Below are positions 34,243-64,000 of a DNA stretch of 64,000 nt, piece by piece. Both the position numbers and the translations under genes were made by a program. The notes beneath the pieces were generated by a model. That model did not search any database and was not told the DNA's origin. It worked only from the letters and a program-made list of their open reading frames with translations. This DNA is from Escherichia phage BF15. The DNA is taken from sequence record MW822007.1. One strand, written 5' to 3'. The stretch's first letter is position 1. Each line of letters begins with the position of its first letter.

Positions 34243-36060
34243 TCATTGGTGTTTAACCCTATGCATGATTTCTTTATTTTTACCGAGATTAAATCCGCGT
34301 TCGTTCGGATTTCCCAAATAACCACATGTTCTTCTTATGGTATTCATCTTTTTAGGATCAGTTTCTCCACAAATAGAACAAACAAATCCGTTTTCAGTAG
34401 GAGTCATTTCATGGGTACTTCCGCATGTAAAACATTTATCTACTGGCATATTAACACCAAAATAATCTAAATGTTGTGCAGCATAATCCCACACGGCCTC
34501 AAGACCTTTCAAGTTATTTTTCATATCAGGAAGTTCAACATAAGAAATGTGACCACCTGTCGCAATGAAATGATACGGCGCTTCACGAGAAATCTTTTCA
34601 AACGGAGTAATATTTTCTTCTACTGAAACATGGAAACTGTTAGTGTACCAACCTTTATCGGTAACATCTTTTACGCTTCCATATTTTTCCGTATCGAGTT
34701 TACAGAAGCGATAACAAAGGTTTTCAGCAGGAGTCGAATATAAACTAAAAGCAAATCCAGTTCTTTCAGTCCACTGTTTAAGATGAGCATTCATTTTAGT
34801 TAAAATTTCCTGTCCAATATCACGACCGACAAGAATATTCAATTCGTGAATACCAATGTATCCTAAAGACACTGAACTTCTACCGTTTTTAAATAACTCA
34901 ATTATGTCGTCATCAGGTTTAAGACGAACCCCGAATGCACCTTCTTGGTAAAGAATAGGAGCAACAGTCGCTTTAACTCCTTTTAAGGAACTAATTCTAC
35001 ACATCAAAGCTTCAAAACATAAATCCATTCGTTCATTAAATAGCTCAACAAATTTCTGTTCATTGAACTGTGTTCCAATATAAGAATCTAACGCGATGCG
35101 AGGAAGATTCAGTGTTACAACACCAAGATTATTACGTCCATCAAGAATTTCATTACCAGTCGAATCTTTCCATACGCTCAAGAAACTGCGGCAACCCATT
35201 GGAGAAACAGGAACAGATGAACCAGTGATAGCTTTATTGTTCTTAGCCGAAATGATGTCAGGATACATCCTTTTGCTTGCACACTCTAGAGCAAGCTGCT
35301 TAATATCATAGTTCGGATCGTCTTTATAAAGATTAACACCCTCTTCAACGAACATAACAAGCTTAGGGAAAATAGGAGTTATTCCATCACGACCAAGACC
35401 TTTAATACGATTTTTCAGAATTGCTTTCTGAATCATTCGTTCAGTCCAGTCAGTTCCCGTACCAAATGTAATTGTTACAAAAGGTGTTTGCCCGTTTGAA
35501 CTAAAGAGAGTATTTACTTCATATTCATAAGCTTGGAATGCATCGTATACGTCTTTTTCTGTTTTAGATTGAGCATAATTCAACGCATCAGCGATTTGCC
35601 ATTTTTCTGCATCCTCAATATGTTTTGCATAGGTGCGTTTAACATAAGGAGAAAGTACTTTATCTACATTCGCAAAAGTCGTTCCGCCGTATTGGTGAGA
35701 AGCAACCTGTGCAGTAATTTGTGCCATAATTGCAGTAGCAACGCCAATTGATTTAGGAGTTTCAATCTGCGCATTACCGAGCTTAAATCCGTTCTCAAGC
35801 ATTCCTTTTAAATCTACTAAACAGCAATTAGTAAATGGAAGAGCAGGGGAATAATCAATATCATGGAAATGAATAATTCCGCTTTCATGCGCTTTCATAA
35901 TAAAAGACGGGACCATATTTTTGGCAATGTGTTTAGACACAATACCAGCCATAAGGTCCCGTTGAGTTGGAAAAACACGAGAATCTTTATTAGCATTCTC
36001 GTTTAAAAGGTCTTTATCAGTTTTATGAATCAATCCTTCAATTTCTTTTTCAATTGTCAT
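34243..36060 (-). CDS. nrdD: anaerobic ribonucleoside-triphosphate reductase NrdD
   Basis: 605 aa contiguous ORF; C-terminal glycyl radical motif RTCGYLG; no intron. Confidence 0.95.
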   Translation of the reverse strand: MTIEKEIEGLIHKTDKDLLNENANKDSRVFPTQRDLMAGIVSKHIAKNMVPSFIMKAHESGIIHFHDIDYSPALPFTNCCLVDLKGMLENGFKLGNAQIETPKSIGVATAIMAQITAQVASHQYGGTTFANVDKVLSPYVKRTYAKHIEDAEKWQIADALNYAQSKTEKDVYDAFQAYEYEVNTLFSSNGQTPFVTITFGTGTDWTERMIQKAILKNRIKGLGRDGITPIFPKLVMFVEEGVNLYKDDPNYDIKQLALECASKRMYPDIISAKNNKAITGSSVPVSPMGCRSFLSVWKDSTGNEILDGRNNLGVVTLNLPRIALDSYIGTQFNEQKFVELFNERMDLCFEALMCRISSLKGVKATVAPILYQEGAFGVRLKPDDDIIELFKNGRSSVSLGYIGIHELNILVGRDIGQEILTKMNAHLKQWTERTGFAFSLYSTPAENLCYRFCKLDTEKYGSVKDVTDKGWYTNSFHVSVEENITPFEKISREAPYHFIATGGHISYVELPDMKNNLKGLEAVWDYAAQHLDYFGVNMPVDKCFTCGSTHEMTPTENGFVCSICGETDPKKMNTIRRTCGYLGNPNERGFNLGKNKEIMHRVKHQ

Positions 36061-51723: not shown

Positions 51724-52067
51724 CTAGTACTCAATCCTCTATTATAAGAATCTACCAAACGGTCAACCATTGAATGACAAGCGGCTTTATCTTTCTCCTC
51801 CGCAACTGAACATTCTAAGGTATTCCACTTTTTAGCATATCGTTTTAATAATGTATCGTTTTTGTATCTGCTTGATTTATCTCTTTCTCCGTCTTTATAT
51901 GCATATATTAATTTCTGTGCAAATTCAGCTTGGCATGCTTTATTTTTCCCACAATAATCTGCCGCAGTGCGGTTTACATATTCTCTAATTTCAGTATATG
52001 ATGTATCTGCTGACGCAGAAGCAGAAAATGAAATTAATCCTATACATAAAACCAAAATTTTAGTCAT
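51720..52067 (-). CDS. secreted hypothetical protein (vs position)
   Basis: 115 aa with signal peptide. Confidence 0.4.
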   Translation of the reverse strand: MTKILVLCIGLISFSASASADTSYTEIREYVNRTAADYCGKNKACQAEFAQKLIYAYKDGERDKSSRYKNDTLLKRYAKKWNTLECSVAEEKDKAACHSMVDRLVDSYNRGLSTR

Positions 52068-52605
52068 TTACTATTTCCAAAAGTTTATTATTTTTAAGGT
52101 AATTAGCCTTTTCTAGGACTTCAGAAGCATATTTAGAACCAGCTTTAACATTCCATCCCGAATTATAAGAGGATATTGCTTTTCTTATATCACCCTTATG
52201 TATATTTAACCAATAAGAAAGTTCAATGTACGCCCAGGAAGCTGAATTGGATCGTTTATTCAACATTCTTTTTATTTCAGCATCGGTCATATTATAACCA
52301 AGTTCCTTAACTCTTGCTCGCATAGTAGGCAAATAATTTTGGAACATTCCGTAGGCGTGATGCTTTGGTTTAGATTTTAAATTAACTCCGCCAGAGCTTT
52401 CTTGCCATAAAATAGCAGCCATTATATGACCTAATCCGCTCTTGTGGATATTTTTGTGTGTTTTATATTTTCCATCCTTAGAAAACTGTTCCCCGAATTG
52501 ATACGCGTAACGCATGTTATCGAGTTGGACATTACTGAAAGTATGCTCGGAGCTATGTGCCATCATTGAAATGGCCAATAGACCAGCGAGTAGTGCTTTT
52601 CTCAT
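52060..52605 (-). CDS. lytic transglycosylase-like protein (SLT domain)
   Basis: 181 aa; signal peptide; WQESSGG catalytic-Glu motif. Confidence 0.6.
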   Translation of the reverse strand: MRKALLAGLLAISMMAHSSEHTFSNVQLDNMRYAYQFGEQFSKDGKYKTHKNIHKSGLGHIMAAILWQESSGGVNLKSKPKHHAYGMFQNYLPTMRARVKELGYNMTDAEIKRMLNKRSNSASWAYIELSYWLNIHKGDIRKAISSYNSGWNVKAGSKYASEVLEKANYLKNNKLLEIVND

Positions 52606-52612
52606 GCTTACC

Positions 52613-53074
52613 TCATTGAGTTTTAATTACTGCTTTAGAAGCCTTTCCTGGTAAACGACGACTGTTAATAATTGCCATCCTGCATTGAAGCGACGGGTCT
52701 TTGAACTTCGCATTAGGTTTACAAACTGTAAATCCAAGCCAAAGATTTCCATCTGTGATTTCTAAACGTCCAGGACGATATTCAACCCCATCAATAAAAT
52801 CCTCGTCAATGTCAGGACGCGGAGGCATACTCAGGAATTCATTAACTTCTAAAACATGGTCTTTTATTTTATGGAATAATTCAAAAACGTATGTCTCATC
52901 AATCTCCCGTTGAATTGCGCGATCAAGAAGATGTTGAGAATATTTTAGATGAAACGATGAGACCCCTGCTGCTTTTGATGCCTCACGAATCTCATTGTTA
53001 ATTTGACGAAACTCCGACTCAAAGTGACGACGAAGCTTATTTCGACGGATAAAAACTTCTGTGTTGATAGTCAT
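52613..53074 (-). CDS. regB: RegB endoribonuclease
   Basis: 153 aa; matches T4 RegB; early promoter at 53102-53131. Confidence 0.9.
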   Translation of the reverse strand: MTINTEVFIRRNKLRRHFESEFRQINNEIREASKAAGVSSFHLKYSQHLLDRAIQREIDETYVFELFHKIKDHVLEVNEFLSMPPRPDIDEDFIDGVEYRPGRLEITDGNLWLGFTVCKPNAKFKDPSLQCRMAIINSRRLPGKASKAVIKTQ

Positions 53075-53101
53075 GTTATTCTCCTCTTAACTGATAGAAA
53101 A

Positions 53102-53131
53102 ATTATACCACAGTCAAGAGGAAAAGTAAAC
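53102..53131 (-). promoter_or_regulatory. T4-type early promoter (regB)
   Basis: minus strand GTTTAC-N18-TATAAT, 28 nt upstream of regB ATG. Confidence 0.65.
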
Positions 53132-53133
53132 AG

Positions 53134-53454
53134 TTATTCTTTAAATCTAATCAATTTATTCATAGACTTTGAAACTTCTGCACGAACCTCATGTAGATTT
53201 TTGAGCTGTTCAAGACGCTGCGTATAGTAAGCAATTTCATCTTCTTCGAGACAGTCCTGTGAATCTTCTTTAAGATAACGTGCATAGTCCTGAAAAGCGT
53301 TACGAACTACTTCCTGGAAGTCATCAAGACTTTGAATTTTCTTAGGAGCAGCAGATACACGACGAGGGGCAGTATAATACTCATAACCAAACCCTGCGCT
53401 TAATTGAGCCATTAGTATTTTTCCTCTGGTTGGAACACTGCACGACAAGCCCAC
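53134..53454 (-). CDS. hypothetical protein (vs.3 position)
   Basis: 106 aa ORF. Confidence 0.4.
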
Positions 53455-53714
53455 ATACTGGCTTCTTTGAGTTTCGTTTTAGCAATAGTTAACTGATCGA
53501 GGCTTTCGGCGTAATTCTTCGCGAGTTCATCATCTTCACAGCTATCAAATGCTTCCCAAAATTCATCGTATAAAGCATCAAAGATAAGTCCTAAACGAAC
53601 TTCAGCGTCTTTAATAGCATTTACTTTACCGATTTTTTCGTCGGTATGTGGCTTATAACCTTTAATATCTTCAATCATATTTGACTTCCTCACCAGTACA
53701 TAAATCGTATTCAA
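53412..53714 (-). CDS. hypothetical protein (vs.4 position)
   Basis: 100 aa ORF, second gene right of regB; start may be internal. Confidence 0.4.
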
Positions 53715-53892
53715 CTAAACGAATAGGTTCATGAATGCCATATCCCTGAACAGAAATTTCTGTAGTAGGATAAATTCCATTAATATCACCCATGTTCCAT
53801 GCTTCGTTAAATTGCTGTTCGCCTGAATTACTAAACCATTCGGCGAAAGCATTTAGCACATCTTCAGAACCTTCAATAATTATCTTTGCCAT
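53671..53892 (-). CDS. hypothetical protein (vs.5 position)
   Basis: 73 aa ORF. Confidence 0.4.
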   Translation of the reverse strand: MAKIIIEGSEDVLNAFAEWFSNSGEQQFNEAWNMGDINGIYPTTEISVQGYGIHEPIRLVEYDLCTGEEVKYD

Positions 53893-54254
53893 TACAAACT
53901 CTCGGTAAAGGTACGAGCGATAACGTCGCGCTGCTGTTCCGGAGTCAGAGAGTTAAAGCGAACTGCATAACCGGATACACGGATGGTCAGCTGCGGATAT
54001 TTTTCCGGATGCTTAACTGCATCTTCCAGAGTTTCACGACGCAGCACGTTTACGTTCAGGTGTTGACCACCTTCAATTTTAACTGTAGGCTGTTGCTCAA
54101 TTTCAATTTCACGGGCATGCAAACCGTAGAAAATTTCTGGGTCTACAAAAGAGTCCTCTTTAAAGGTTTTAGAGACAATAATTCGTGCTTGAATACCATC
54201 TTCAAAATAAATAGTACCTTTATGTGTGCCTTCAAGAATTTGATATGCTTTCAT
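53892..54254 (-). CDS. GrcA/YfiD-like autonomous glycyl radical cofactor
   Basis: 120 aa; C-terminal ~60 aa ([60 protein letters not shown]) match E. coli GrcA as recalled; 3' half visibly GC-rich. Confidence 0.8.
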
Positions 54255-54261
54255 ATAAACC

Positions 54262-54642
54262 TCAATTAGAAAATAAATTTATCCAAGATTGTTCTTTAAT
54301 TAAAAATGGCTCAGAATCATATGCCATTAAACTCTGTGTGATTAGTCCTTTAAAAGGCCCATCAATAAATTCCATGGTAAAATATGGAATTTTATTCATT
54401 AGCCGTGCATTAGGAGCAGTACATAAAACTCTGCATCCTTTGAATACACCTTTTTGTAATTTGTATTGCTTGGGATAAAATTCGCTCAAAATGTTGTTAT
54501 TTGCCAAAATTTCAAAATGATTTACCAATTTATTTTTAATAGTTTTTGGCGAAAAATAGAGATATTCGAAAAGCTGAGTGTCTGTCATCATTGCATTCCG
54601 ATTACGAAAAACTGTGGACGAGTAATACCACCAATACAACAT
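54262..54642 (-). CDS. hypothetical protein (vs.7 position)
   Basis: 126 aa ORF. Confidence 0.4.
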
Positions 54643-55127
54643 TTAATATTACAGCAGCAGTGTACAGTGTCAATATGGACACTATAAATCTTATCCATAT
54701 CAGGAGATTTGACAGGCTCGTCAATTATATACAAAATTCGCGAAAGCGATAAACCTCTGAACTTGCTTCCTTTATTACCAATAAAACTGCGTACAGAATC
54801 AGTAAATAAACGAAAACGTATATCATCATTAGAATAACGCGAAAATTCCTTTTTAATGTTATTTGCAGAAATTTTAGCGTAAGCTGAAGTATTAGAAAGA
54901 ACAATAACTGTTCCGCCATCATACAACCAATTAGCAGCAAAGTTAGTCACAGCAATTGATTTACCGGATTGACGCCCACCATCTAGTCGAAGTGTGCAAT
55001 ACTGTTTAAGTAAGTCTTCAAATGGCGGGATATATTCGTTTTTACAAATTTCTTCTACTCTAGCATCAGAATGGTGTGTAAAAGCATTCATCAGGGATAG
55101 ATAAGGTCCAGTTAAAAATGTTCTCAT
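54588..55127 (-). CDS. small P-loop NTPase-like protein
   Basis: 179 aa; Walker A GGRQSGKS, Walker B-like ILYIIDEP; ATG at 55127. Confidence 0.45.
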   Translation of the reverse strand: MRTFLTGPYLSLMNAFTHHSDARVEEICKNEYIPPFEDLLKQYCTLRLDGGRQSGKSIAVTNFAANWLYDGGTVIVLSNTSAYAKISANNIKKEFSRYSNDDIRFRLFTDSVRSFIGNKGSKFRGLSLSRILYIIDEPVKSPDMDKIYSVHIDTVHCCCNIKCCIGGITRPQFFVIGMQ

Positions 55128-55208
55128 TTAGTTTCTCTTTTAGGTTGGGCCATTCCGTGGCGCATGAATTGTCCATTTCTGTATTTACCCCTCCAAGTAA
55201 TTATGAAT

Positions 55209-55238
55209 ATACTATCACAATTCTAGGAGAAAGTAAAC
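55209..55238 (-). promoter_or_regulatory. T4-type early promoter (P-loop gene)
   Basis: minus strand GTTTAC with TAGTAT-like -10. Confidence 0.45.
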
Positions 55239-55240
55239 TG

Positions 55241-55543
55241 TTATTTACCTTTAATTACTTTAGCTGCTTCGATAGCCGCTTGCTGAAGGTCATCCATAGA
55301 CATACCGAATTTAGAAGCAAAGTTATCAATTTTCTTTTCGACAGCATTCAAAGGCTTGGCCTGTTTACCTTCATTAGCGCCAGGAAGAGCGAGAATACGC
55401 TCTTTGTCAATATAAAGGCTTACAAGTTTCTTACGGTCTTTATCGGACAAATCATGAAATGAATGGGCCTTTTTATTTATAGCGGCTTCTAATTTACCTG
55501 CACTCACTCGCGCTTCAGTAATAAATTCTTGATATGTTTTCAT
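55241..55543 (-). CDS. ipII: internal protein IPII
   Basis: 100 aa; capsid-targeting leader MKTYQEFITEA; size as T4 IPII. Confidence 0.75.
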   Translation of the reverse strand: MKTYQEFITEARVSAGKLEAAINKKAHSFHDLSDKDRKKLVSLYIDKERILALPGANEGKQAKPLNAVEKKIDNFASKFGMSMDDLQQAAIEAAKVIKGK

Positions 55544-55584
55544 ATGTTTCCTTTAAATGTAAATAGGTCTGAGTATTATCTTTA

Positions 55585-56163
55585 TTAGGAATTACGGGCT
55601 GCATTAGCAACGGCGTAAGCGTACTGGACATTAGCGTCTTTAAACGTACCTTTAGAGGTATCTATTTCTGCCTTAAAGCCGCCTTTAGCCATAACATCGG
55701 CAAATTCTTTACGGAAAGCCATTGCATCAAGACCTTTCCATGATGATTTATGCTTGGCAAATTCAAGACCAGCGTAGTTGACAGCCTTAGCTAATTTATT
55801 ATCAATAACCCATTTACCGGCTTTAGGCACAAACTTCGGGCCTTTTTGTTTAGAGAACAGTTTTAAATTCCAGCGACGAAGGTCACTGTCGGCTTTAACA
55901 AAAGCTGCGTCTAAGTTACTAGCAACAACATCTTCAATATGAGCAAATTTAAGTCCGTCAACTTCAATATTTAGATCGTTACGCCAGCGAAGTCCTTCCC
56001 AAGCGAAGGCTTTAAAGTCGGAAGCCTTTGTAGCTAAGTACCGTTCAATAGGAGCTGTTTTAGGGTCAAAGCCGTTTCCCGATCGGTAGGTCCACTCATC
56101 TTTATTAATGCCTTTGGCCTTTACTATAGAAGCTTCGGCAATAAATTCTTGATAGGTTTTCAT
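55585..56163 (-). CDS. ipIII: internal protein IPIII
   Basis: 192 aa; leader MKTYQEFIAEA; size as T4 IPIII. Confidence 0.75.
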   Translation of the reverse strand: MKTYQEFIAEASIVKAKGINKDEWTYRSGNGFDPKTAPIERYLATKASDFKAFAWEGLRWRNDLNIEVDGLKFAHIEDVVASNLDAAFVKADSDLRRWNLKLFSKQKGPKFVPKAGKWVIDNKLAKAVNYAGLEFAKHKSSWKGLDAMAFRKEFADVMAKGGFKAEIDTSKGTFKDANVQYAYAVANAARNS

Positions 56164-56224
56164 GTGTTTCCTTGTTTGTTTTGATAGAGTAATTATACCA
56201 TATTAATACTTAAGCGTAAACCGT

Positions 56225-56485
56225 TTAAGCTTTACCGCCAGAAATAATTCCGAAGTTGTTAAAATCATATCCAATATCGTCAACATCTACTTTAGGACTT
56301 GCTACAACATAAGCAATTTCACTACGTTTTGCACAGGTGTTGATTTCTTTACCATCGCCACCTAAGAAAGAATACCCATTACGTTTTAATGAGCCAAAGT
56401 CTTCCGCATCACCAATGAAAGCTTTAACTTTAAATTTAGAACCTTTGGCATCTGCTTCAACGATAAATTCTTGATACATTTTCAT
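56225..56485 (-). CDS. additional internal-protein-like ORF
   Basis: 86 aa; leader MKMYQEFIVEA; own early promoter at 56623-56652. Confidence 0.55.
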   Translation of the reverse strand: MKMYQEFIVEADAKGSKFKVKAFIGDAEDFGSLKRNGYSFLGGDGKEINTCAKRSEIAYVVASPKVDVDDIGYDFNNFGIISGGKA

Positions 56486-56622
56486 TTTTCCTTAGTAAAT
56501 TGATTTACCAAAGTATTTGTACCAAGTCGGACGTTGATCAATTTTTTCATCTAAGCGTGCTTGATTTATCGCAATGGACGCTTCGGACGGGTCATAATTT
56601 CCTCCAAGTAGTTGATGAATGT

Positions 56623-56652
56623 ATAGTATCAAAACCCTTGGAGGAAGTAAAC
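56623..56652 (-). promoter_or_regulatory. T4-type early promoter (extra ip-like gene)
   Basis: minus strand GTTTAC-N18-TACTAT. Confidence 0.55.
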
Positions 56653-56654
56653 AA

Positions 56655-57895
<1,241 letters not shown>

Positions 57896-57914
<19 letters not shown>

Positions 57915-58384
57915 TCAGTGATAAAGCTATTTAAATTTTGGGTATATTTCTTTTCATCATAAATCTTTTGCTGTCTGCGTAAACGCCATGGCATTTCAAT
58001 GAACATACGCCATATTCCTGATAATACTGCTGCTGTAAAAATATTAACAAGTATAGTTAAAAGAATCCAATCTCCTATTCTGTCCATTGGATTTTTTATA
58101 AAAAAGTAAAATACGAATGATGATATAGGAAGACTAATGATATACCACAGAAGAACCTTTTTATCTGTGAACCAATCAGCGTTCGTTAACTTAGCGCGAC
58201 CATTATGAATACACACGAATTTATCGTCTGTTATAGTAGATGGCTTAACTGGTTGATATCCCATTCTAAACTCCCTAATCAACAAATTTTTCATATCTTC
58301 GGAACAGCCATTCCAGTCAACTCTATCAACTGAAATGCCATCGTCCCCATCATCTAAATCATACCAACGAGTTTTTAAAATCAT
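57896..58384 (-). CDS. hypothetical membrane protein (e.x)
   Basis: 162 aa; TM segments. Confidence 0.4.
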
Positions 58385-58743
58385 TTGATTTTCCTACAAT
58401 CACTCACAAACTCTTCCATTGATTCTTTTTCAATATAAGACATGTAGTTGTTATATTCTTTTAATTGTATTTTGTAATCCTTTTTTCTTTGCCAATTTAT
58501 TTTAAAATTATCATAATGAAAAAATAGCATGGTACCAAAGAATGAAAATAATGAAATCGCTATAGTATAACGAAGTTCGCTCCAAACCTCTGTTATAATT
58601 GCTGAACTATCGACGTTTAAAATAAAACAGTCAATCATTAGTCCAATAAGACTACCCGCAAGAGCTGCAAATACTGATACGGCAAGAATTAATAGTGCCT
58701 CAGGAAACGAATATTTGACTTTATTTAGTTTTGGCTTTTGCAT
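58381..58743 (-). CDS. hypothetical membrane protein (e.x)
   Basis: 120 aa; TM segments. Confidence 0.4.
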   Translation of the reverse strand: MQKPKLNKVKYSFPEALLILAVSVFAALAGSLIGLMIDCFILNVDSSAIITEVWSELRYTIAISLFSFFGTMLFFHYDNFKINWQRKKDYKIQLKEYNNYMSYIEKESMEEFVSDCRKIK

Positions 58744-59138
58744 CGTGATTCCTTAACAAATTTCATAATTTCGTTAAATTCATACATATCTAGTTTAAGC
58801 TGGTGTTCCTTTTTAATCTTTTTACACTGAGCTTTCCATTCACGTACGCGTTTACGATAATGTCTTCCTTGATACCAGTATCCTACCCAATTTACAGGTA
58901 CCAATAAAAATGGAACTACTAATGGAAGAATTAACGTTGCTCCAAATATTACGCCAGATTCAATATCTGTCATAACGTCTATAACCATTCCAGCAATCAG
59001 TAGAATTACAAATGATACAGCTACCACAGGACCCATTAATACATCGGTAGAAATTATCTGGCGCTTTAGTTCATACTTCAAAGGTTTACTTGGAAGGTAT
59101 AGTGATGGCTTTGACATATTCTCTACATTCCTTAACAA
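58725..59138 (-). CDS. hypothetical membrane protein (e.x)
   Basis: 137 aa; TM segments. Confidence 0.4.
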   Translation of the reverse strand: MLRNVENMSKPSLYLPSKPLKYELKRQIISTDVLMGPVVAVSFVILLIAGMVIDVMTDIESGVIFGATLILPLVVPFLLVPVNWVGYWYQGRHYRKRVREWKAQCKKIKKEHQLKLDMYEFNEIMKFVKESRCKSQN

Positions 59139-59694
59139 ATTTTTCTAGTAATAAATCGCTTTCAAAATTAGGATTTTTCACGAATTTATCAAAAAGATCA
59201 TCAATAATAGTCAAAATATTCTTTTTACTAAGAATACGCTTATTTTCATATTCCGTTTCAGAGTCAACTATAAGAGTAAAGAAATATTTCTTTCCCTGAA
59301 ATTTTACCGTAGTATCAATATAAAATAAATTTGACTTTTGTAAATTACGTTTAAACCATGCGTCACTTAAACTATAAATGCCAAGATAATCATAATCGTC
59401 GTTTAAATAACAAACTGTCCATTCAGGAGAAATGAAATCAGTAAATTCAACATCAAAATCACATGTCAATGAATGAATTGATTCAATACTGTTAATAAGT
59501 ATTCCAGGACGTATTAAAGACTTTTTACCTCTATAAAATCTTCCAGAAAGACTTTCGTCAGTTTCATACGAAGACCCCCAATAGTAATTACGTCCTTCTG
59601 CCATACGTTTAAGAGCATTCAGTAATTGGTCTGGAACATCAACCTGTCTTTGGAACTCTTCAAACATTGAATTGAAATCATTTTGCATTCTCAT
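59086..59694 (-). CDS. hypothetical protein (e.x)
   Basis: 202 aa ORF; start uncertain. Confidence 0.45.
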   Translation of the reverse strand: MRMQNDFNSMFEEFQRQVDVPDQLLNALKRMAEGRNYYWGSSYETDESLSGRFYRGKKSLIRPGILINSIESIHSLTCDFDVEFTDFISPEWTVCYLNDDYDYLGIYSLSDAWFKRNLQKSNLFYIDTTVKFQGKKYFFTLIVDSETEYENKRILSKKNILTIIDDLFDKFVKNPNFESDLLLEKFVKECREYVKAITIPSK

Positions 59695-59711
59695 TCCTAT
59701 TTACTCCAAGT

Positions 59712-59729
59712 AATAGGGGCCGAAGCCCC
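59712..59729 (-). terminator. stem-loop/terminator
   Basis: GGGGC-UUCG-GCCCC hairpin. Confidence 0.5.
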
Positions 59730-59735
59730 TTATCA

Positions 59736-60329
59736 TTATTTCAGAGAATTGATGTATTCCTGAACATCGGCAGAGGTAGTTTCAACCCCGGAAATATTAC
59801 CGTTAAAGGTTTCAACTCGAGCAAGAGTATCTTCAATATCAACCTTAGTTAGCGCTGCGATTTCAACTACATCATCAGCAGTACTAATTCCAAGGGCATT
59901 TGCCGCACGAGTTTCACGGATATATTCCAATTTAACTGCAAGTTCTTGGCGAGCATCATCTAACTCAACTACTTTCTTGGCGATTTCAATTCGCATTTCA
60001 GCATAACCATCAGCTTTAGTAGTCAACTGCTCAGCTGTTCGACGATATAGTAAACCGAGTTTAGCATGCATTGTTACATCTTGACCTTCGGAAAGAAGTC
60101 TGCGAATTTCACGCTCTTTTGATTCGGCTTGTCGATTCTTTTCGATAACAAGTTCACGAATACGTTTTTCTTCATTAATAGATTTAACAGAAGCAGTTTT
60201 TAGGTCTTTAATTTTATCAAGTAATTTTGCTGCTGCAGCAGTATACTGTTCTTCAACAGATAAATTTTTAGCCATAGCAGAACCAAGTTTAGTGCGAATA
60301 AACTCAACAATTTTCTTCAGTGTGTTCAT
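59736..60329 (-). CDS. hypothetical alpha-helical protein
   Basis: 197 aa; long predicted helices; terminator downstream. Confidence 0.45.
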
Positions 60330-60385
60330 AGTATTTCCTTAGGTTGATACAATTAGATAATATCACGTTTTAATAAATTGTAAAC

Positions 60386-60721
60386 TTATTCTTCGTCTAG
60401 CTCATCGATAAAGACGTCAATGGCCTCGATAACGGCATCATTGATAGCCAATAAAGTAAAATCATCGTCAGTGTCTTTAGAAGATTCTAAAGCATTGATA
60501 TATGCTTTGTTAGCAAGTTCCCAAGCCTTTTTAAAATAAGGAGCTTCATCATCAGGGCCAACGAAACGTACACCTTCAAAGATACGGTTAGCATAATCCA
60601 ATACCCACTGTACAGGCATGCTTTGAGAACGTTCGTTAAACTCTTTAAATTCCTTAGATTCAAAAAGCTCTTCGGGATAATAATTTCGATTACAAAAAGC
60701 TTTACTAAAGTTACGTTTCAT
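60386..60721 (-). CDS. hypothetical protein (e.x)
   Basis: 111 aa acidic ORF. Confidence 0.4.
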   Translation of the reverse strand: MKRNFSKAFCNRNYYPEELFESKEFKEFNERSQSMPVQWVLDYANRIFEGVRFVGPDDEAPYFKKAWELANKAYINALESSKDTDDDFTLLAINDAVIEAIDVFIDELDEE

Positions 60722-60776
60722 AATGTTCTCCTCAAATTATGGGCTCATAATATCTCAATCATGAGCCCATGTAAAC

Positions 60777-61052
60777 TTATTTCATATTATTGAAATATTC
60801 TTCTGCGATTTCGTCGTTATCGTGGTAAACTTTAGAAGACAGTTTAACATAACCTTCAGCAGTGAACATGTTAATCACAACCTTTACAGTATACCACTGA
60901 CCATCTTCATTACCCATTACTGCGTAAGTTTCAAACATCGGATGGTCAGGACCGATAACTTTAATATCATTCACCGTACGACCGAAATCTTCTGAAACAC
61001 ATTTCAGAAAGAAGTTGAACAGTTCGCCGTAATTATCCATTTCGTTCTCCAA
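60777..61052 (-). CDS. hypothetical protein (e.x)
   Basis: track start is TTG; internal ATG at 61040; early promoter upstream. Confidence 0.4.
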   Translation of the reverse strand: MENEMDNYGELFNFFLKCVSEDFGRTVNDIKVIGPDHPMFETYAVMGNEDGQWYTVKVVINMFTAEGYVKLSSKVYHDNDEIAEEYFNNMK

Positions 61053-61083
61053 GTTGTTTTCTGTATCAGTAGTTGATATTGAT

Positions 61084-61113
61084 ATAGTACCATGGAAGAA
61101 CAGGGATGTAAAC
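61084..61113 (-). promoter_or_regulatory. T4-type early promoter
   Basis: minus strand GTTTAC-N18-TACTAT; conserved promoter-leader repeat. Confidence 0.55.
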
Positions 61114-61247
61114 CATTTTGTGAAAAAATTTTTTTAAAAGTTTTAGGGAATTCTAGGGCAGGGAGGGGCAATTAAAGGATAGGATAATATATTATAAAGG
61201 GTAGAAACTAAATGATGCCTAGAGAGGTCCAAAAAGGCCTAGATACT

Positions 61248-61274
61248 AAAAAGCCCCAACCTTTCGGCTGGGGC
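61248..61274 (-). terminator. terminator at end of tRNA/stable-RNA operon
   Basis: GCCCC...GGGGC hairpin plus U run just downstream of stable-RNA region. Confidence 0.55.
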
Positions 61275-61590
61275 TAAGCCTTGCGGCAACCTTGTCGGGG
61301 TTCCACCTGCTAAGGCAAGTGTTTGTACGAAACGCCGGGATTCGAACCCGGTTATTGAGCAGTTGACGCTACTCAATATTTTTAAAAGGCCATATCTCGA
61401 CCATATCCGAACGTTCCGTCAAAAACGCTACTCGGCTTATGGCAAAGATATTTCCTCGAATCGATAATTCGGTGCGCCGTTTCTGCTGTGATATAAGGGG
61501 GCATTAACAAAACATAAAGATTTATTAATGCCAGTCCTTAAACAGGGAACATCAGTCCGACGACTTGCCGGTAGCGACCCGGCTTCTTGT
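61275..61590 (-). ncRNA. stable RNA region downstream of tRNA-Arg (T4 species 1/2 RNA-like)
   Basis: no ORF; tRNA-like T-arm GGGTTCGAATCCCGG and hairpins; position as T4 rnaC/rnaD; boundaries approximate. Confidence 0.45.
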
Positions 61591-61591
61591 T

Positions 61592-61668
<77 letters not shown>

Positions 61669-61671
61669 TAA

Positions 61672-62337
61672 TTAAAATTTCATTTTTCGACCTTTAAACC
61701 ATCCTTCTGGAATTGGATCAGTTTTCTTAATACGTTTAGAAACTTTTTCATCTAATGAATGAATCCACATCATACCAAATTGGGAATTCTTTTCACCTTG
61801 TTGGTGTTTATTTCTGGCGTGAGATTCTTTCATTTTATTAATAGTTTCAGGAGTATGAGTCTTACCCAAGAAAGATTTAGTATTTAAAAATTTCTCTCTA
61901 TACTTAGGATTATCCCAAAGCTGTTTAAACCTTTCTGAACCCATTTTACGATATTTTTCTTTAAGGTCTGGGTCGTTCTCAAATCTGGTTTTAAAAGCGG
62001 CAGCTCCTTTTAAGGAAGCTTCTTTCTTTTTATCCAAATATTCTTTAGTGTTTAAATGGTCCCAACCACCTTCACCACCTAATTTCAAATTATAAACATC
62101 AGGGCGCTTTAAAAACTCTTCAGTCACAATATTCTTTTCTGACTCAAACATAGAGGTTTTATCGTCAAAGAACTCTAATATTTCTTTAGAAAAATTTTCT
62201 ATACCATACTTATCTTGGGCTCTTTTTAATAATTTACCAGAACCCATATATCCATCATCTAAATTTTCGGTAGAATGAGCGCCTATATAGATTTTATTAT
62301 TAATTTTATTTGTTATTTTATAAATGTAATGGAACAT
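61672..62337 (-). CDS. segB: GIY-YIG homing endonuclease SegB
   Basis: 221 aa; KIYIGAHS...YMGSG; inside tRNA cluster as T4 segB. Confidence 0.75.
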   Translation of the reverse strand: MFHYIYKITNKINNKIYIGAHSTENLDDGYMGSGKLLKRAQDKYGIENFSKEILEFFDDKTSMFESEKNIVTEEFLKRPDVYNLKLGGEGGWDHLNTKEYLDKKKEASLKGAAAFKTRFENDPDLKEKYRKMGSERFKQLWDNPKYREKFLNTKSFLGKTHTPETINKMKESHARNKHQQGEKNSQFGMMWIHSLDEKVSKRIKKTDPIPEGWFKGRKMKF

Positions 62338-62378
62338 AAATATCTCCTATTTCTAAGAGTATTTATGTTCTCAAAATA

Positions 62379-62450
62379 TGGCCCTGGGTGGAATTGAACC
62401 ACCATCTGGCGATTATGAGTCGCTTGCTTGAACCTTCCAGCTACAGGGCC
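62379..62450 (-). tRNA. tRNA-Ile (anticodon CAU; could be Met)
   Basis: anticodon loop CUCAUAA; T-arm GGTGGTTCAATTCCACC. Confidence 0.75.
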
Positions 62451-62456
62451 TTGATA

Positions 62457-62529
62457 TGCTGATTGACGGAATCGAACCGCCGACGTCCTCATTACAAGTG
62501 AGTTGCTCTACCTACTGAGCTAAATCAGC
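62457..62529 (-). tRNA. tRNA-Thr (anticodon UGU)
   Basis: D-arm GCTCAGTAGGTAGAGC; anticodon loop CUUGUAA. Confidence 0.8.
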
Positions 62530-62536
62530 GAAATTA

Positions 62537-62623
62537 CGGAGGCGATAGGATTTGAACCTATGAGTCGCCGGAGCGACTGCCGGTTTTCAAGACCGGTGCA
62601 TTAAACCACTCTGCCACGCCTCC
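62537..62623 (-). tRNA. tRNA-Ser (anticodon UGA)
   Basis: long variable arm; anticodon loop CUUGAAA. Confidence 0.8.
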
Positions 62624-62625
62624 AG

Positions 62626-62699
62626 TCTCCATACAAGGATTTGAACCTTGGACCTCCTGATCCCAAATCAGGCGCTCTACCAAACTGAGCTACACGGAG
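62626..62699 (-). tRNA. tRNA-Pro (anticodon UGG)
   Basis: anticodon loop UUUGGGA; 2 nt from tRNA-Ser (Pro-Ser dimer as in T4). Confidence 0.8.
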
Positions 62700-62711
62700 T
62701 AAATTAAATTT

Positions 62712-62783
<72 letters not shown>

Positions 62784-62789
62784 AAACTT

Positions 62790-62876
62790 TGGTACGAGAA
62801 GTGGGACTCGAACCCACAAGGAAATCATTCCGCAGCATTTTAAGTGCTGTGCCTTTACCAATTTGACCATTCTCGC
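62790..62876 (-). tRNA. tRNA-Leu (anticodon UAA), CCA encoded
   Basis: long variable arm; anticodon loop CUUAAAA. Confidence 0.8.
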
Positions 62877-62877
62877 G

Positions 62878-62950
62878 CTGGGAATAAAGGACTCGAACCT
62901 TTGCATCCTGGAATCAAAATCCAGTGCCTTACCAACTTGGCTAATTCCCA
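62878..62950 (-). tRNA. tRNA-Gln (anticodon UUG)
   Basis: anticodon loop UUUUGAU; T-loop TTCGAGT. Confidence 0.8.
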
Positions 62951-63047
62951 ATTATTAACAAAGGCTCTCAAACAAGAACCCTTGATGATAGAGGGTATTA
63001 ATCAGTGCGGTATGAGTTAATAATAACAAATAATTCTTAAAGCATAT

Positions 63048-63335
63048 TTACCATTTATGATGATACATATTTACGATGCATTCAAGATCCAAAGGATTCT
63101 TGAAAATATCATATTCAAGAGGACCTTTTTCTGTTTCAATAAAGAAATCAAAATTTACTGTGTTAAATTTACGGTCTTCCTTCGCTAATTTAACTTGAGA
63201 AGATGAACGGTCAATGTAAACTTTTTCAACTTCAAAACATGTTAAAATGCCATAATCATTAATCAAGGCTTTAGCCGCATCTTGATCATATTTATATCCA
63301 TTTTCAACGGACGATACTTTAGCATAAAGAATCAT
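63048..63335 (-). CDS. hypothetical protein (tRNA-adjacent)
   Basis: 95 aa ORF. Confidence 0.4.
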   Translation of the reverse strand: MILYAKVSSVENGYKYDQDAAKALINDYGILTCFEVEKVYIDRSSSQVKLAKEDRKFNTVNFDFFIETEKGPLEYDIFKNPLDLECIVNMYHHKW

Positions 63336-63337
63336 TA

Positions 63338-63721
63338 TCAGCCTTCATCAACAATAGTATGAGTATGGGCATTTACAATTTGCCACCAGTCAAAACGATT
63401 AGAACCATACATCGGTTTATTTTCATTTTCTTTGATAATATCACGAAGTTCATCTTCAGTAGCGGCTTTCGCGATTAAATCAGAATATCCACCACGAGGA
63501 TAATAATTATCACCCGCAAAAAGTAAAAAGTTCGGTTTAATATTATTGAACTCTTCAAGAGTAATAACTGTTCCTGATGGTAGTTGAACAATCTCTACAT
63601 ATTTATATCCTAATTTTTGAGCAGCATCTACTGCTTCAAGCAAAGTATCATGAGCCCATCCTATTTGACAATTCGGCTTTTTAGATGGATTAGCCTGATA
63701 ATCTGCGTACACTTTATACAT
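63338..63721 (-). CDS. hypothetical protein
   Basis: track ORF trimmed to ATG 63721 (MYKVYADYQ...). Confidence 0.4.
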   Translation of the reverse strand: MYKVYADYQANPSKKPNCQIGWAHDTLLEAVDAAQKLGYKYVEIVQLPSGTVITLEEFNNIKPNFLLFAGDNYYPRGGYSDLIAKAATEDELRDIIKENENKPMYGSNRFDWWQIVNAHTHTIVDEG

Positions 63722-63722
63722 T

Positions 63723-63908
63723 CTATTCACCTTTAGAAATTTTATCCATAACGATAGCAATTAAACCAATTAAAAATGCTACTACAAGTGAAAAAACATT
63801 TTCTGCTGTAGTCAATAATCCGCATATAAATCCAACAAACATTGAAAAACTAAAAGCGGAAGCAGAAATTGCAATAGCAACATTTCGAATTAATTCACAA
63901 CGTTTCAT
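63723..63908 (-). CDS. hypothetical small membrane protein
   Basis: 61 aa hydrophobic; early promoter at 63937-63966. Confidence 0.35.
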   Translation of the reverse strand: MKRCELIRNVAIAISASAFSFSMFVGFICGLLTTAENVFSLVVAFLIGLIAIVMDKISKGE

Positions 63909-63936
63909 TTTATTCTCCTCAGTAGTTGATAGGGTA

Positions 63937-63966
63937 ATAGTATCACTACCCTATCTAAAAGTAAAC
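63937..63966 (-). promoter_or_regulatory. T4-type early promoter
   Basis: minus strand GTTTAC-N18-TACTAT. Confidence 0.5.
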
Positions 63967-64000
63967 TGTTTTTATAAACTATTTTATTCCGCGTGATGCA

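Follow-up and report, generated by a model that had tools for sequence, protein, structure and literature searches.

Gene vs.6 of Escherichia phage BF15, a T4-type glycyl-radical cofactor gene, probably carries a radical domain overwritten by host grcA

The E. coli protein YfiD (GrcA) and the phage T4 protein Y06I are the only two validated spare-part proteins (PMC8683613), and Y06I is activated by the PFL activase and restores PFL cleaved by oxygen (Wagner et al. 2001, as cited in PMC8683613). Residues 61-127 of YfiD share the fold of PFL residues 693-759, while residues 1-60 are disordered and contribute to the binding of cleaved PFL and to efficient installation of the radical (PMC8683613). 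Y06I is the name used in UniProt and the literature for the product of gene vs.6. A comparative study of T4-type genomes found vs.6 conserved in 6/6 genomes and makes no mention of YfiD or of a mosaic (PMC1524935). The gene and its biochemical activity are already known, and intragenic recombination between host and phage is a known kind of event as well, established for the cyanophage auxiliary metabolic genes psbA and psbD, which have patchy %G+C and have swapped segments with the host (Sullivan et al. 2006, PMC1484495). The mosaic in vs.6 that we describe here is an instance of this kind of event. In the searchable literature, to which Wagner et al. 2001 and the 2003 T4 genome review do not belong, we found no description of a nucleotide-level host patch in vs.6.

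The DNA analysed is a 64,000-nt stretch of the genome of Escherichia phage BF15 (MW822007.1), called the window below, in which the gene, its catalytic codon and its downstream neighbour lie as follows:

53892..54254, minus strand: vs.6 (Y06I), coding sequence of a GrcA-like phage autonomous glycyl-radical cofactor, 120 aa, ATG to TAA (list of open reading frames).
53970..53972, minus strand: Gly95 codon, RVSGY motif; this residue bears the radical and corresponds to GrcA G102 and PflB G734 (translation; alignment to 6OWR and PflB 697-759).
53671..53892, minus strand: vs.5, the downstream gene, 73 aa (list of open reading frames; phrog_1986, E 7e-44; T4-type synteny).

The vs.5 ATG overlaps the stop codon of vs.6 in the sequence TAATG. 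The only Pfam domain in the vs.6 protein is Gly_radical at residues 60-101 (67 bits, cut-off 22.2), and the RVSGYAV motif occupies residues 92-98; the residue equivalent to Gly95 is the radical site of PFL as given in PMC8683613. Among solved structures the top match is 6OWR, which is E. coli YfiD (E 9e-42), followed by PflB 697-759, and the protein aligns over its full length, residues 1-120, to positions 1-121 of 121 of phrog_1209 (E 5.7e-63), a family labelled 'unknown function' in the database. With the NCBIfam equivalog model TIGR04365 (spare_glycyl) it scores 154.9 bits over model positions 25-126 of 126, which is under the cut-off of 170 because its N-terminus is divergent. The architecture and motifs are those of the GrcA family, i.e., a small standalone glycyl-radical protein with the RVSGY loop and a PflB-like C-terminus. 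The gene is 98-100% identical to genes annotated vs.6 or GrcA in 744 phage records, with DNA identities in Tequatrovirus of 99.7% for Yersinia phage PST and 98.1% for T4 strain 147, and homologues in phage records are annotated either as 'vs.6 hypothetical protein' or as 'autonomous glycyl radical cofactor GrcA'. Its neighbours are those found in T4, with vs, vs.1, regB and vs.3-vs.5 downstream and vs.7, vs.8 and ipIII upstream; the order vs.5/vs.6/vs.7 matches T4, G8 and Mosigvirus, and the flanking genes match phrog_1986 and phrog_2049. The match to the T4-type gene together with the T4 neighbours therefore identifies the gene as vs.6 of a T4-type phage (Tequatrovirus). An Rfam search of positions 52000-64000 returned tRNAs only, with no match at vs.6, and promoter and terminator scans around the gene gave counts at the shuffled expectation (12 vs 12.0; 2 vs 2.2), which carry no information on expression.

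Compared with T4 Y06I, BF15 vs.6 is the same gene at 98% DNA identity in the same slot between vs.5 and vs.7, and the two proteins (Y06I taken from T4 strain 147) are one residue apart, Q54P in the N-terminal half, with no functional difference apparent. It resembles E. coli GrcA/YfiD (6OWR) in being a standalone protein of ~14 kDa with the RVSGY loop, identical C-terminal 60 residues and 171/172 shared nucleotides. Unlike GrcA, it has an N-terminal half that is only ~31% identical over 48 columns and 7 residues shorter, and its gene is carried by a lytic phage, with phage signals for its expression. Like the C-terminal domain of PflB (693-759), it copies the piece that the spare part replaces, with 49/63 residues identical between vs.6 residues 58-120 and PflB 697-759 (E 5e-26).

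The two halves of the gene differ sharply, and the segments into which we divide it are these:

53905..54076, minus strand: host-derived patch, 172 nt, encoding residues 60-116, the structured glycyl-radical domain (blastn, pairwise alignment, GC, diagnostic sites, triplet test).
54077..54254, minus strand: phage-type 5' half, residues 1-59/60, AT-rich and homologous, though diverged, to the disordered N-terminal part of GrcA (GC, identity, profile-profile match).
54054..54076, minus strand: 5' junction, start of the conserved E-G-G-Q-H-L-N-V block (TTGAAGGTGGTCAACACCTGAAC; multi-genome alignment).
53892..53904, minus strand: last 13 nt of vs.6, with the phage-typical states GAG AGT (4/5 of the differences from E. 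coli grcA, all synonymous).

A first-pass annotation of this DNA, made from the sequence alone, had reported that the C-terminal ~60 residues match GrcA including RVSGYAV, that the 3' half is GC-richer and that the boundary lies at about 54077. These observations were confirmed throughout, the boundary to the base. Residues 61-120 of vs.6 are identical to residues 68-127 of E. coli GrcA, RVSGYAV included, and nucleotides 179-363 of the gene (53892-54076) matched grcA at 97.3% identity by blastn in 5,426/5,426 complete E. coli genomes, among which no match was found 5' of nucleotide 179. Within the core, 53905-54076, identity to E. coli grcA is 171/172 with a perfect run of 140 nt, and all five differences in the 3' half are synonymous, four of them in the last 13 nt. 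As patch donor, pflB was ruled out, the top E. coli match always being grcA (97% at the DNA level), and this sets the patch apart from the PflB C-terminal domain that it resembles in sequence. In a sliding-window scan the GC content is 0.50 in the 3' 180 nt vs 0.34 in the 5' 183 nt, the latter equal to the level of the window (mean 0.342, sd 0.045 in 180-nt windows). A value of 0.50 is attained by just 0.3% of the 180-nt windows, and the other places that reach it are the tRNA cluster at 62379-62720 and the segment 61193-61447 beside tRNA-Arg. When positions 4001-64000 were compared with the 5,426 E. coli genomes by megablast, the vs.6 patch was the sole match. Such unusual composition is all that speaks for an assembly chimera or contaminating host DNA, and we give this explanation no credence, since IMG/VR contigs and 744 independently sequenced phage records that hold vs.6 at 80-100% coverage show the same mosaic.

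The C-terminal 60 residues are near-invariant across Enterobacterales, Pasteurellaceae and many phages, therefore an identical amino-acid sequence does not by itself demonstrate transfer. The same near-invariance is what could be said for an absence of any transfer, with protein constraint and common codon preference making the phage and host 3' halves alike. The synonymous sites leave this explanation a vanishingly small probability. The Slopekvirus gene 150040 and the Pseudotevenvirus gene EC-F1 encode the same 60 residues, yet their DNA is 83% identical to E. coli, and bacterial genera with the identical peptide reach 85-92%. The synonymous distance (dS) of the 3' half to E. coli is 0.12 for BF15 vs.6 and 0.07 for T4, vs 1.25 for the unconverted Karamvirus-like gene L103 and 1.74 for 150040. 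Convergence through codon bias was thus ruled out by the dS of phage and bacterial genes that encode the same peptide, and the 171/172 identity of the core and the E. coli-specific synonymous states at 17/19 diagnostic sites in vs.6 (19/19 in T4) likewise stand against it. These 19 sites are the fixed differences between E. coli and four Klebsiella grcA genes, the Klebsiella DNA used being of K. variicola type plus two metagenome contigs.

Among 81 bacterial grcA genes, the vs.6 3' half is 96-98% identical to E. coli and ~91% to the next closest bacterial genus. Together with the synonymous distances this points to Escherichia as the donor and to a transfer that was recent on the scale of enterobacterial genera, and the recent host acquisition proposed by the first-pass annotation, set against these values (96-98% vs ~91%, dS 0.07-0.12), holds. 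Sequence identity alone does not give the direction, and the E. coli grcA 3' half could in principle have come from a T4-like phage. This is extremely improbable, as the E. coli 3' half lies at graded synonymous distances from its bacterial relatives (dS 0.02 to cryptic Escherichia, 0.40 to Citrobacter, 0.61 to Klebsiella and 0.96 to Salmonella), has host-like GC against a phage genome average of 0.34, occurs in every E. coli genome inside a uniformly host-like gene, and is absent as E. coli sequence from phage lineages outside Tequatrovirus and Mosigvirus. From the graded bacterial distances, the host composition and the lack of E. coli sequence in phages outside these two genera, we conclude that the patch moved from host to phage.

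The first-pass annotation had further proposed that the host segment was fused to a phage-like N-terminus, and this part did not stand. A de novo chimera, in which illegitimate recombination had captured a piece of host grcA and placed it in frame with an unrelated phage ORF, would account for the sharp break in composition and identity at 54076/54077 and for the absence of grcA DNA similarity upstream. In a codon-aligned comparison the 5' half shares 43% of its nucleotides with E. coli grcA and 73% with the Karamvirus-like gene. When N-terminal profiles built from 9 phage and 13 bacterial GrcA sequences were compared, however, hhalign returned a probability of 92.4% (E 5.3e-7; 48 columns, 31% identity), and the phmmer alignment of vs.6 to YfiD reaches back to residue 22. 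On this profile evidence the N-terminal half of vs.6 is a distant homologue of the GrcA N-terminal region. Moreover, a full-length gene with a non-host 3' half is present in Karamvirus-like phages (L103-L107), Slopekvirus, Pseudotevenvirus, Krischvirus, Aeromonas T4-likes, T5-like Demerecviridae and jumbo Eneladusvirus, in the T4-like genera in the same syntenic slot. These other phage grcA-like genes share the two-part architecture and the C-terminal motif and often have an MKAYQ-type start, and their 3' halves are not host-like; with every bacterial grcA in the sample they share only 70-84% identity, the Karamvirus-type sequence being ~79% identical to E. coli grcA, and no segment of at least 40 nt at ≥96% identity to a sampled bacterial grcA was found in these lineages. 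Three findings argue against a chimera, which we consider highly unlikely: the 120-aa architecture recurs with a non-host 3' half in seven or more other phage lineages, the N-terminal half is homologous to that of GrcA, and the 3' end of the patch falls within vs.6. The GrcA-like N-terminus and the full-length genes elsewhere indicate that part of an existing phage gene was replaced rather than a fusion created. At the sites informative for the triplet of vs.6, L103 and E. coli, the 5' part sides with the phage gene over E. coli by 61:6 and the 3' part by 2:34 (Fisher p=1e-18).

The junctions fit replacement. The E-G-G-Q-H-L-N-V block is conserved in all aligned phage and bacterial genes, and the sequence directly upstream of it is unalignable; at this block the phage and host genes seem to retain enough nucleotide identity for recombination. 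At the other end, the last 13 nt of vs.6 show states typical of phage genes, the codons GAG AGT being common to the Slopekvirus and Pseudotevenvirus genes, which suits the end of a conversion tract. The four terminal differences could instead be later mutations that were selected as the ribosome-binding site of vs.5: GAG AGT puts GAGAG 6 nt before the start codon of vs.5, and the annotation of phage Miller has a ribosome-binding site at the corresponding position. With conversion as the cause, both patch ends lie inside the homologous block, as homology-driven conversion predicts. As one component of a joint reading that we hold to be very probable in its entirety, the host patch would be the product of gene conversion within a phage gene older than the patch itself, with the conserved E-G-G-Q-H-L-N-V block as its boundary.

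That reading can be set out as a sequence of events. T4-like phages would long have possessed a full-length, diverged grcA homologue, and in the ancestral lineage of Tequatrovirus and Mosigvirus ~172 nt of its 3' half would have been overwritten by E. coli grcA through homologous (homeologous) recombination or gene conversion with host DNA. The patch would end within the sole stretch in which phage and host can be aligned at the DNA level, from the E-G-G-Q-H-L-N-V block to just before the stop codon. The outcome would be a PflB-docking radical domain identical to the host spare part, joined to a disordered N-terminal region that stays phage-specific. It resembles the cyanophage psbA and psbD genes in its discrete segment of host composition, its near-identity to a host allele and its discordant history; unlike them, it concerns a phage of an enterobacterial host, and the patch is one structural domain, 99% host-like, with a donor named to genus.

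The host patch corresponds to GrcA residues 67/68 to ~123, essentially the structured domain of YfiD, and by analogy with T4 Y06I the BF15 protein is in all probability, as part of the same joint reading, a phage-encoded PFL spare part. The host PFL activase (PflA) would install the radical on Gly95, and the C-terminal domain of vs.6 would dock into host PFL that lacks its oxygen-cut C-terminus and restore catalysis, as published for T4 Y06I and E. coli YfiD. The benefit to the phage may be that PFL stays active in microaerobic hosts after host transcription is shut off. Active PFL would sustain acetyl-CoA and ATP as well as formate, which would be the reductant of the phage NrdD. The class III ribonucleotide reductase NrdD takes formate, a product of PFL, as reductant, thus keeping PFL alive would feed the anaerobic dNTP synthesis of the phage; this link through PFL upkeep is plausible. 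Taken as a whole, the explanation that vs.6 is a T4-type GrcA cofactor serving PFL rescue, with its 3' half overwritten by E. coli grcA, is one in which we have high confidence.

As possible targets of repair, the first-pass annotation had named both host PflB and the phage NrdD. The former agrees with the activity reported for T4 Y06I (Wagner et al. 2001, as cited in PMC8683613), and the latter found no support, so that the interpretation given there is upheld in part. The idea that vs.6 is a spare part for NrdD rather than PflB has some appeal, as NrdD is likewise a glycyl-radical enzyme cleaved by oxygen, nrdD and nrdG lie within the same window, and a role of vs.6 in nucleotide metabolism was the speculation of Nolan et al. 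2006 (PMC1524935). The reported closeness of the two genes is correct as to the window and loose as to distance: nrdD (605 aa, C-terminus ..RRTCGYLGNPNERGF..) is at 34243-36060, 17.8 kb from vs.6, a gap of ~40 genes if counted on the G8 annotation, and this separation tells against NrdD as the target. A spare part must also duplicate the C-terminal domain of its target, and vs.6 duplicates PflB 697-759 (49/63 identical) and matches host GrcA. BLASTP of vs.6 against BF15 NrdD gave a best E of 3.9 with no alignment at the RTCGYLG region, i.e., no similarity to the NrdD C-terminus. Since the activity published for the T4 protein is on PFL, as far as PMC8683613 relays it, we regard NrdD as a very improbable target and PflB as the probable partner of vs.6.

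The halves of vs.6 carry discordant histories across T4-like phages. BF15 vs.6 and the gene of Mosigvirus HX01 differ at 20/183 positions in the 5' half and 6/180 in the 3' half; for HX01 and O157tp6 the counts are 1/183 and 7/180, and for the Jiaodavirus phages KP179 and PKO111 they are 8/183 and 20/180. In the last two pairs, both of close relatives, the 3' half is the more divergent one although it is the constrained one. Between Tequatrovirus and Mosigvirus, the dS of 0.15 in the patch vs 0.42 in the 5' half hints at later or repeated events, or at spread from phage to phage. The genes of Jiaodavirus, a phage of Klebsiella, reach a GC content of 0.54 in the 3' half vs 0.35 in the 5' half and encode LLDAVEH, a protein variant characteristic of Klebsiella GrcA, and in KP179 a 95-nt stretch has 3 mismatches to Klebsiella grcA. 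Scored at the 19 diagnostic sites as Klebsiella/E. coli/other, KP179 gives 14/3/2 and PKO111 15/1/3, whereas the E. coli phages of Tequatrovirus and Mosigvirus have the E. coli state at 17-19 of the 19. Klebsiella pneumoniae grcA was not among the best 80 loci of the scan of genome contigs for grcA, and the Klebsiella genes used were retrieved through homologous proteins and the contigs that encode them. A Klebsiella-type patch at the same place suggests that replacement recurs and tracks the host. We consider it likely that there were at least two independent host-to-phage replacements, each from the host genus of the phage and at the same junction. The radical domain may thus be repeatedly overwritten by the grcA allele of the current host, and the tract may be bounded by DNA homology to the structured domain in such a way that docking stays matched to host PflB and PflA. 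That this recurrence reflects adaptive host-matching rather than neutral, homology-driven conversion is a doubtful proposition. No host-like stretches were seen in T5-like phages of E. coli and Salmonella, therefore the process is lineage-specific or rare.

Gene vs.6 offers an unusually clean case of a phage gene overwritten in part by DNA from the host chromosome, and it does so in the best-studied family of lytic phages. The patch is the sole E. coli-like DNA found in 60 kb and is precise to the structural domain, and a version apparently derived from Klebsiella is carried by Klebsiella phages; a domain-precise patch that seems to match the host genus is a real evolutionary detail of moderate interest. 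If the pattern is confirmed on the ~1,600 phage grcA genes, it would mean that strictly lytic phages, which degrade host DNA, still sample that DNA by homologous recombination, that conserved protein motifs serve as recombination anchors, and that auxiliary metabolic genes can stay matched to host partner enzymes, as has been proposed for cyanophage psbA. The vs.6 3' half may also prove useful in practice, as an indicator of the genus that a T4-like phage has recently had as host. Two metagenomic phage contigs of ~150 kb (L117 and L118) contain 59-86-nt Haemophilus-like stretches, a weaker hint of a third case of replacement.

The 3' half of the grcA-like genes of two Jiaodavirus phages is GC-rich (0.54) and of Klebsiella type, with the Klebsiella state at 14-15 of the 19 diagnostic sites, i.e., the fixed differences between E. 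coli and Klebsiella grcA.

L006, 401-763: grcA-like gene of Klebsiella phage KP179 (Jiaodavirus)
L007, 401-763: grcA-like gene of phage PKO111 (Jiaodavirus)

The match between Klebsiella grcA and the KP179 gene extends over 95 nt with 3 mismatches, and the KP179 and PKO111 genes differ from each other more in the 3' half (20/180 positions) than in the 5' half (8/183). The grcA-like genes on two metagenomic phage contigs contain stretches that resemble a different bacterial genus.

L117 and L118, about 401-790: grcA-like genes on two IMG/VR contigs (91 kb and 152 kb)

Stretches of 86 nt and 59 nt in these genes match Haemophilus grcA (loci L074 and L076) with an identity of 96% or more, and about 55 nt match without a break. 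They may represent a third host-derived patch.

Two further sequences are of bacterial type. The protein cluster P0054 (900 member sequences from Logan assemblies) is a GrcA of E. coli type whose final 17 residues are of the type found in pyruvate formate-lyase, PflB (..NSLTKEQQQDVITRTFTQSM); either it arose in bacteria by conversion between grcA and pflB, or it is a chimera produced during assembly. The full-length, bacterial-type, Yersinia-like grcA (MITGIQITKASNEALLN...) on the 19-kb IMG/VR contig L125, which carries a viral label, probably belongs to host sequence flanking a called prophage rather than to a phage.

The 3' end of the GrcA-like gene vs.6 was compared with E. coli grcA at its junction with the downstream gene vs.5.

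53890-53904: overlap of the vs.6 stop and vs.5 start (TAATG), with GAGAG

The start codon of vs.5 overlaps the stop of vs.6, and the four synonymous differences from E. coli grcA in the final 13 nt of vs.6 create the GAGAG located six bases 5' of the vs.5 ATG. The same GAGAG-producing state is common to the Slopekvirus and Pseudotevenvirus genes, which suggests that vs.5 is translationally coupled at this junction.

Elsewhere in the window, a GC-rich stretch adjoins tRNA-Arg (61592-61668).

61193-61447: GC-rich stretch, GC reaching 0.50 in 180-nt windows (mean of the whole window, 0.34)

Within it, ARAGORN called no tRNA and no Rfam family reached the gathering score; it may correspond to the small stable RNAs of T4.

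The nrdD gene of phage G8 is annotated as two pieces flanking a homing-endonuclease gene, whereas that of the window is unbroken.

34243-36060, minus strand: nrdD, single uninterrupted ORF, 605 aa
33406-34092, minus strand: 228-aa ORF with GTG start, directly downstream of nrdD
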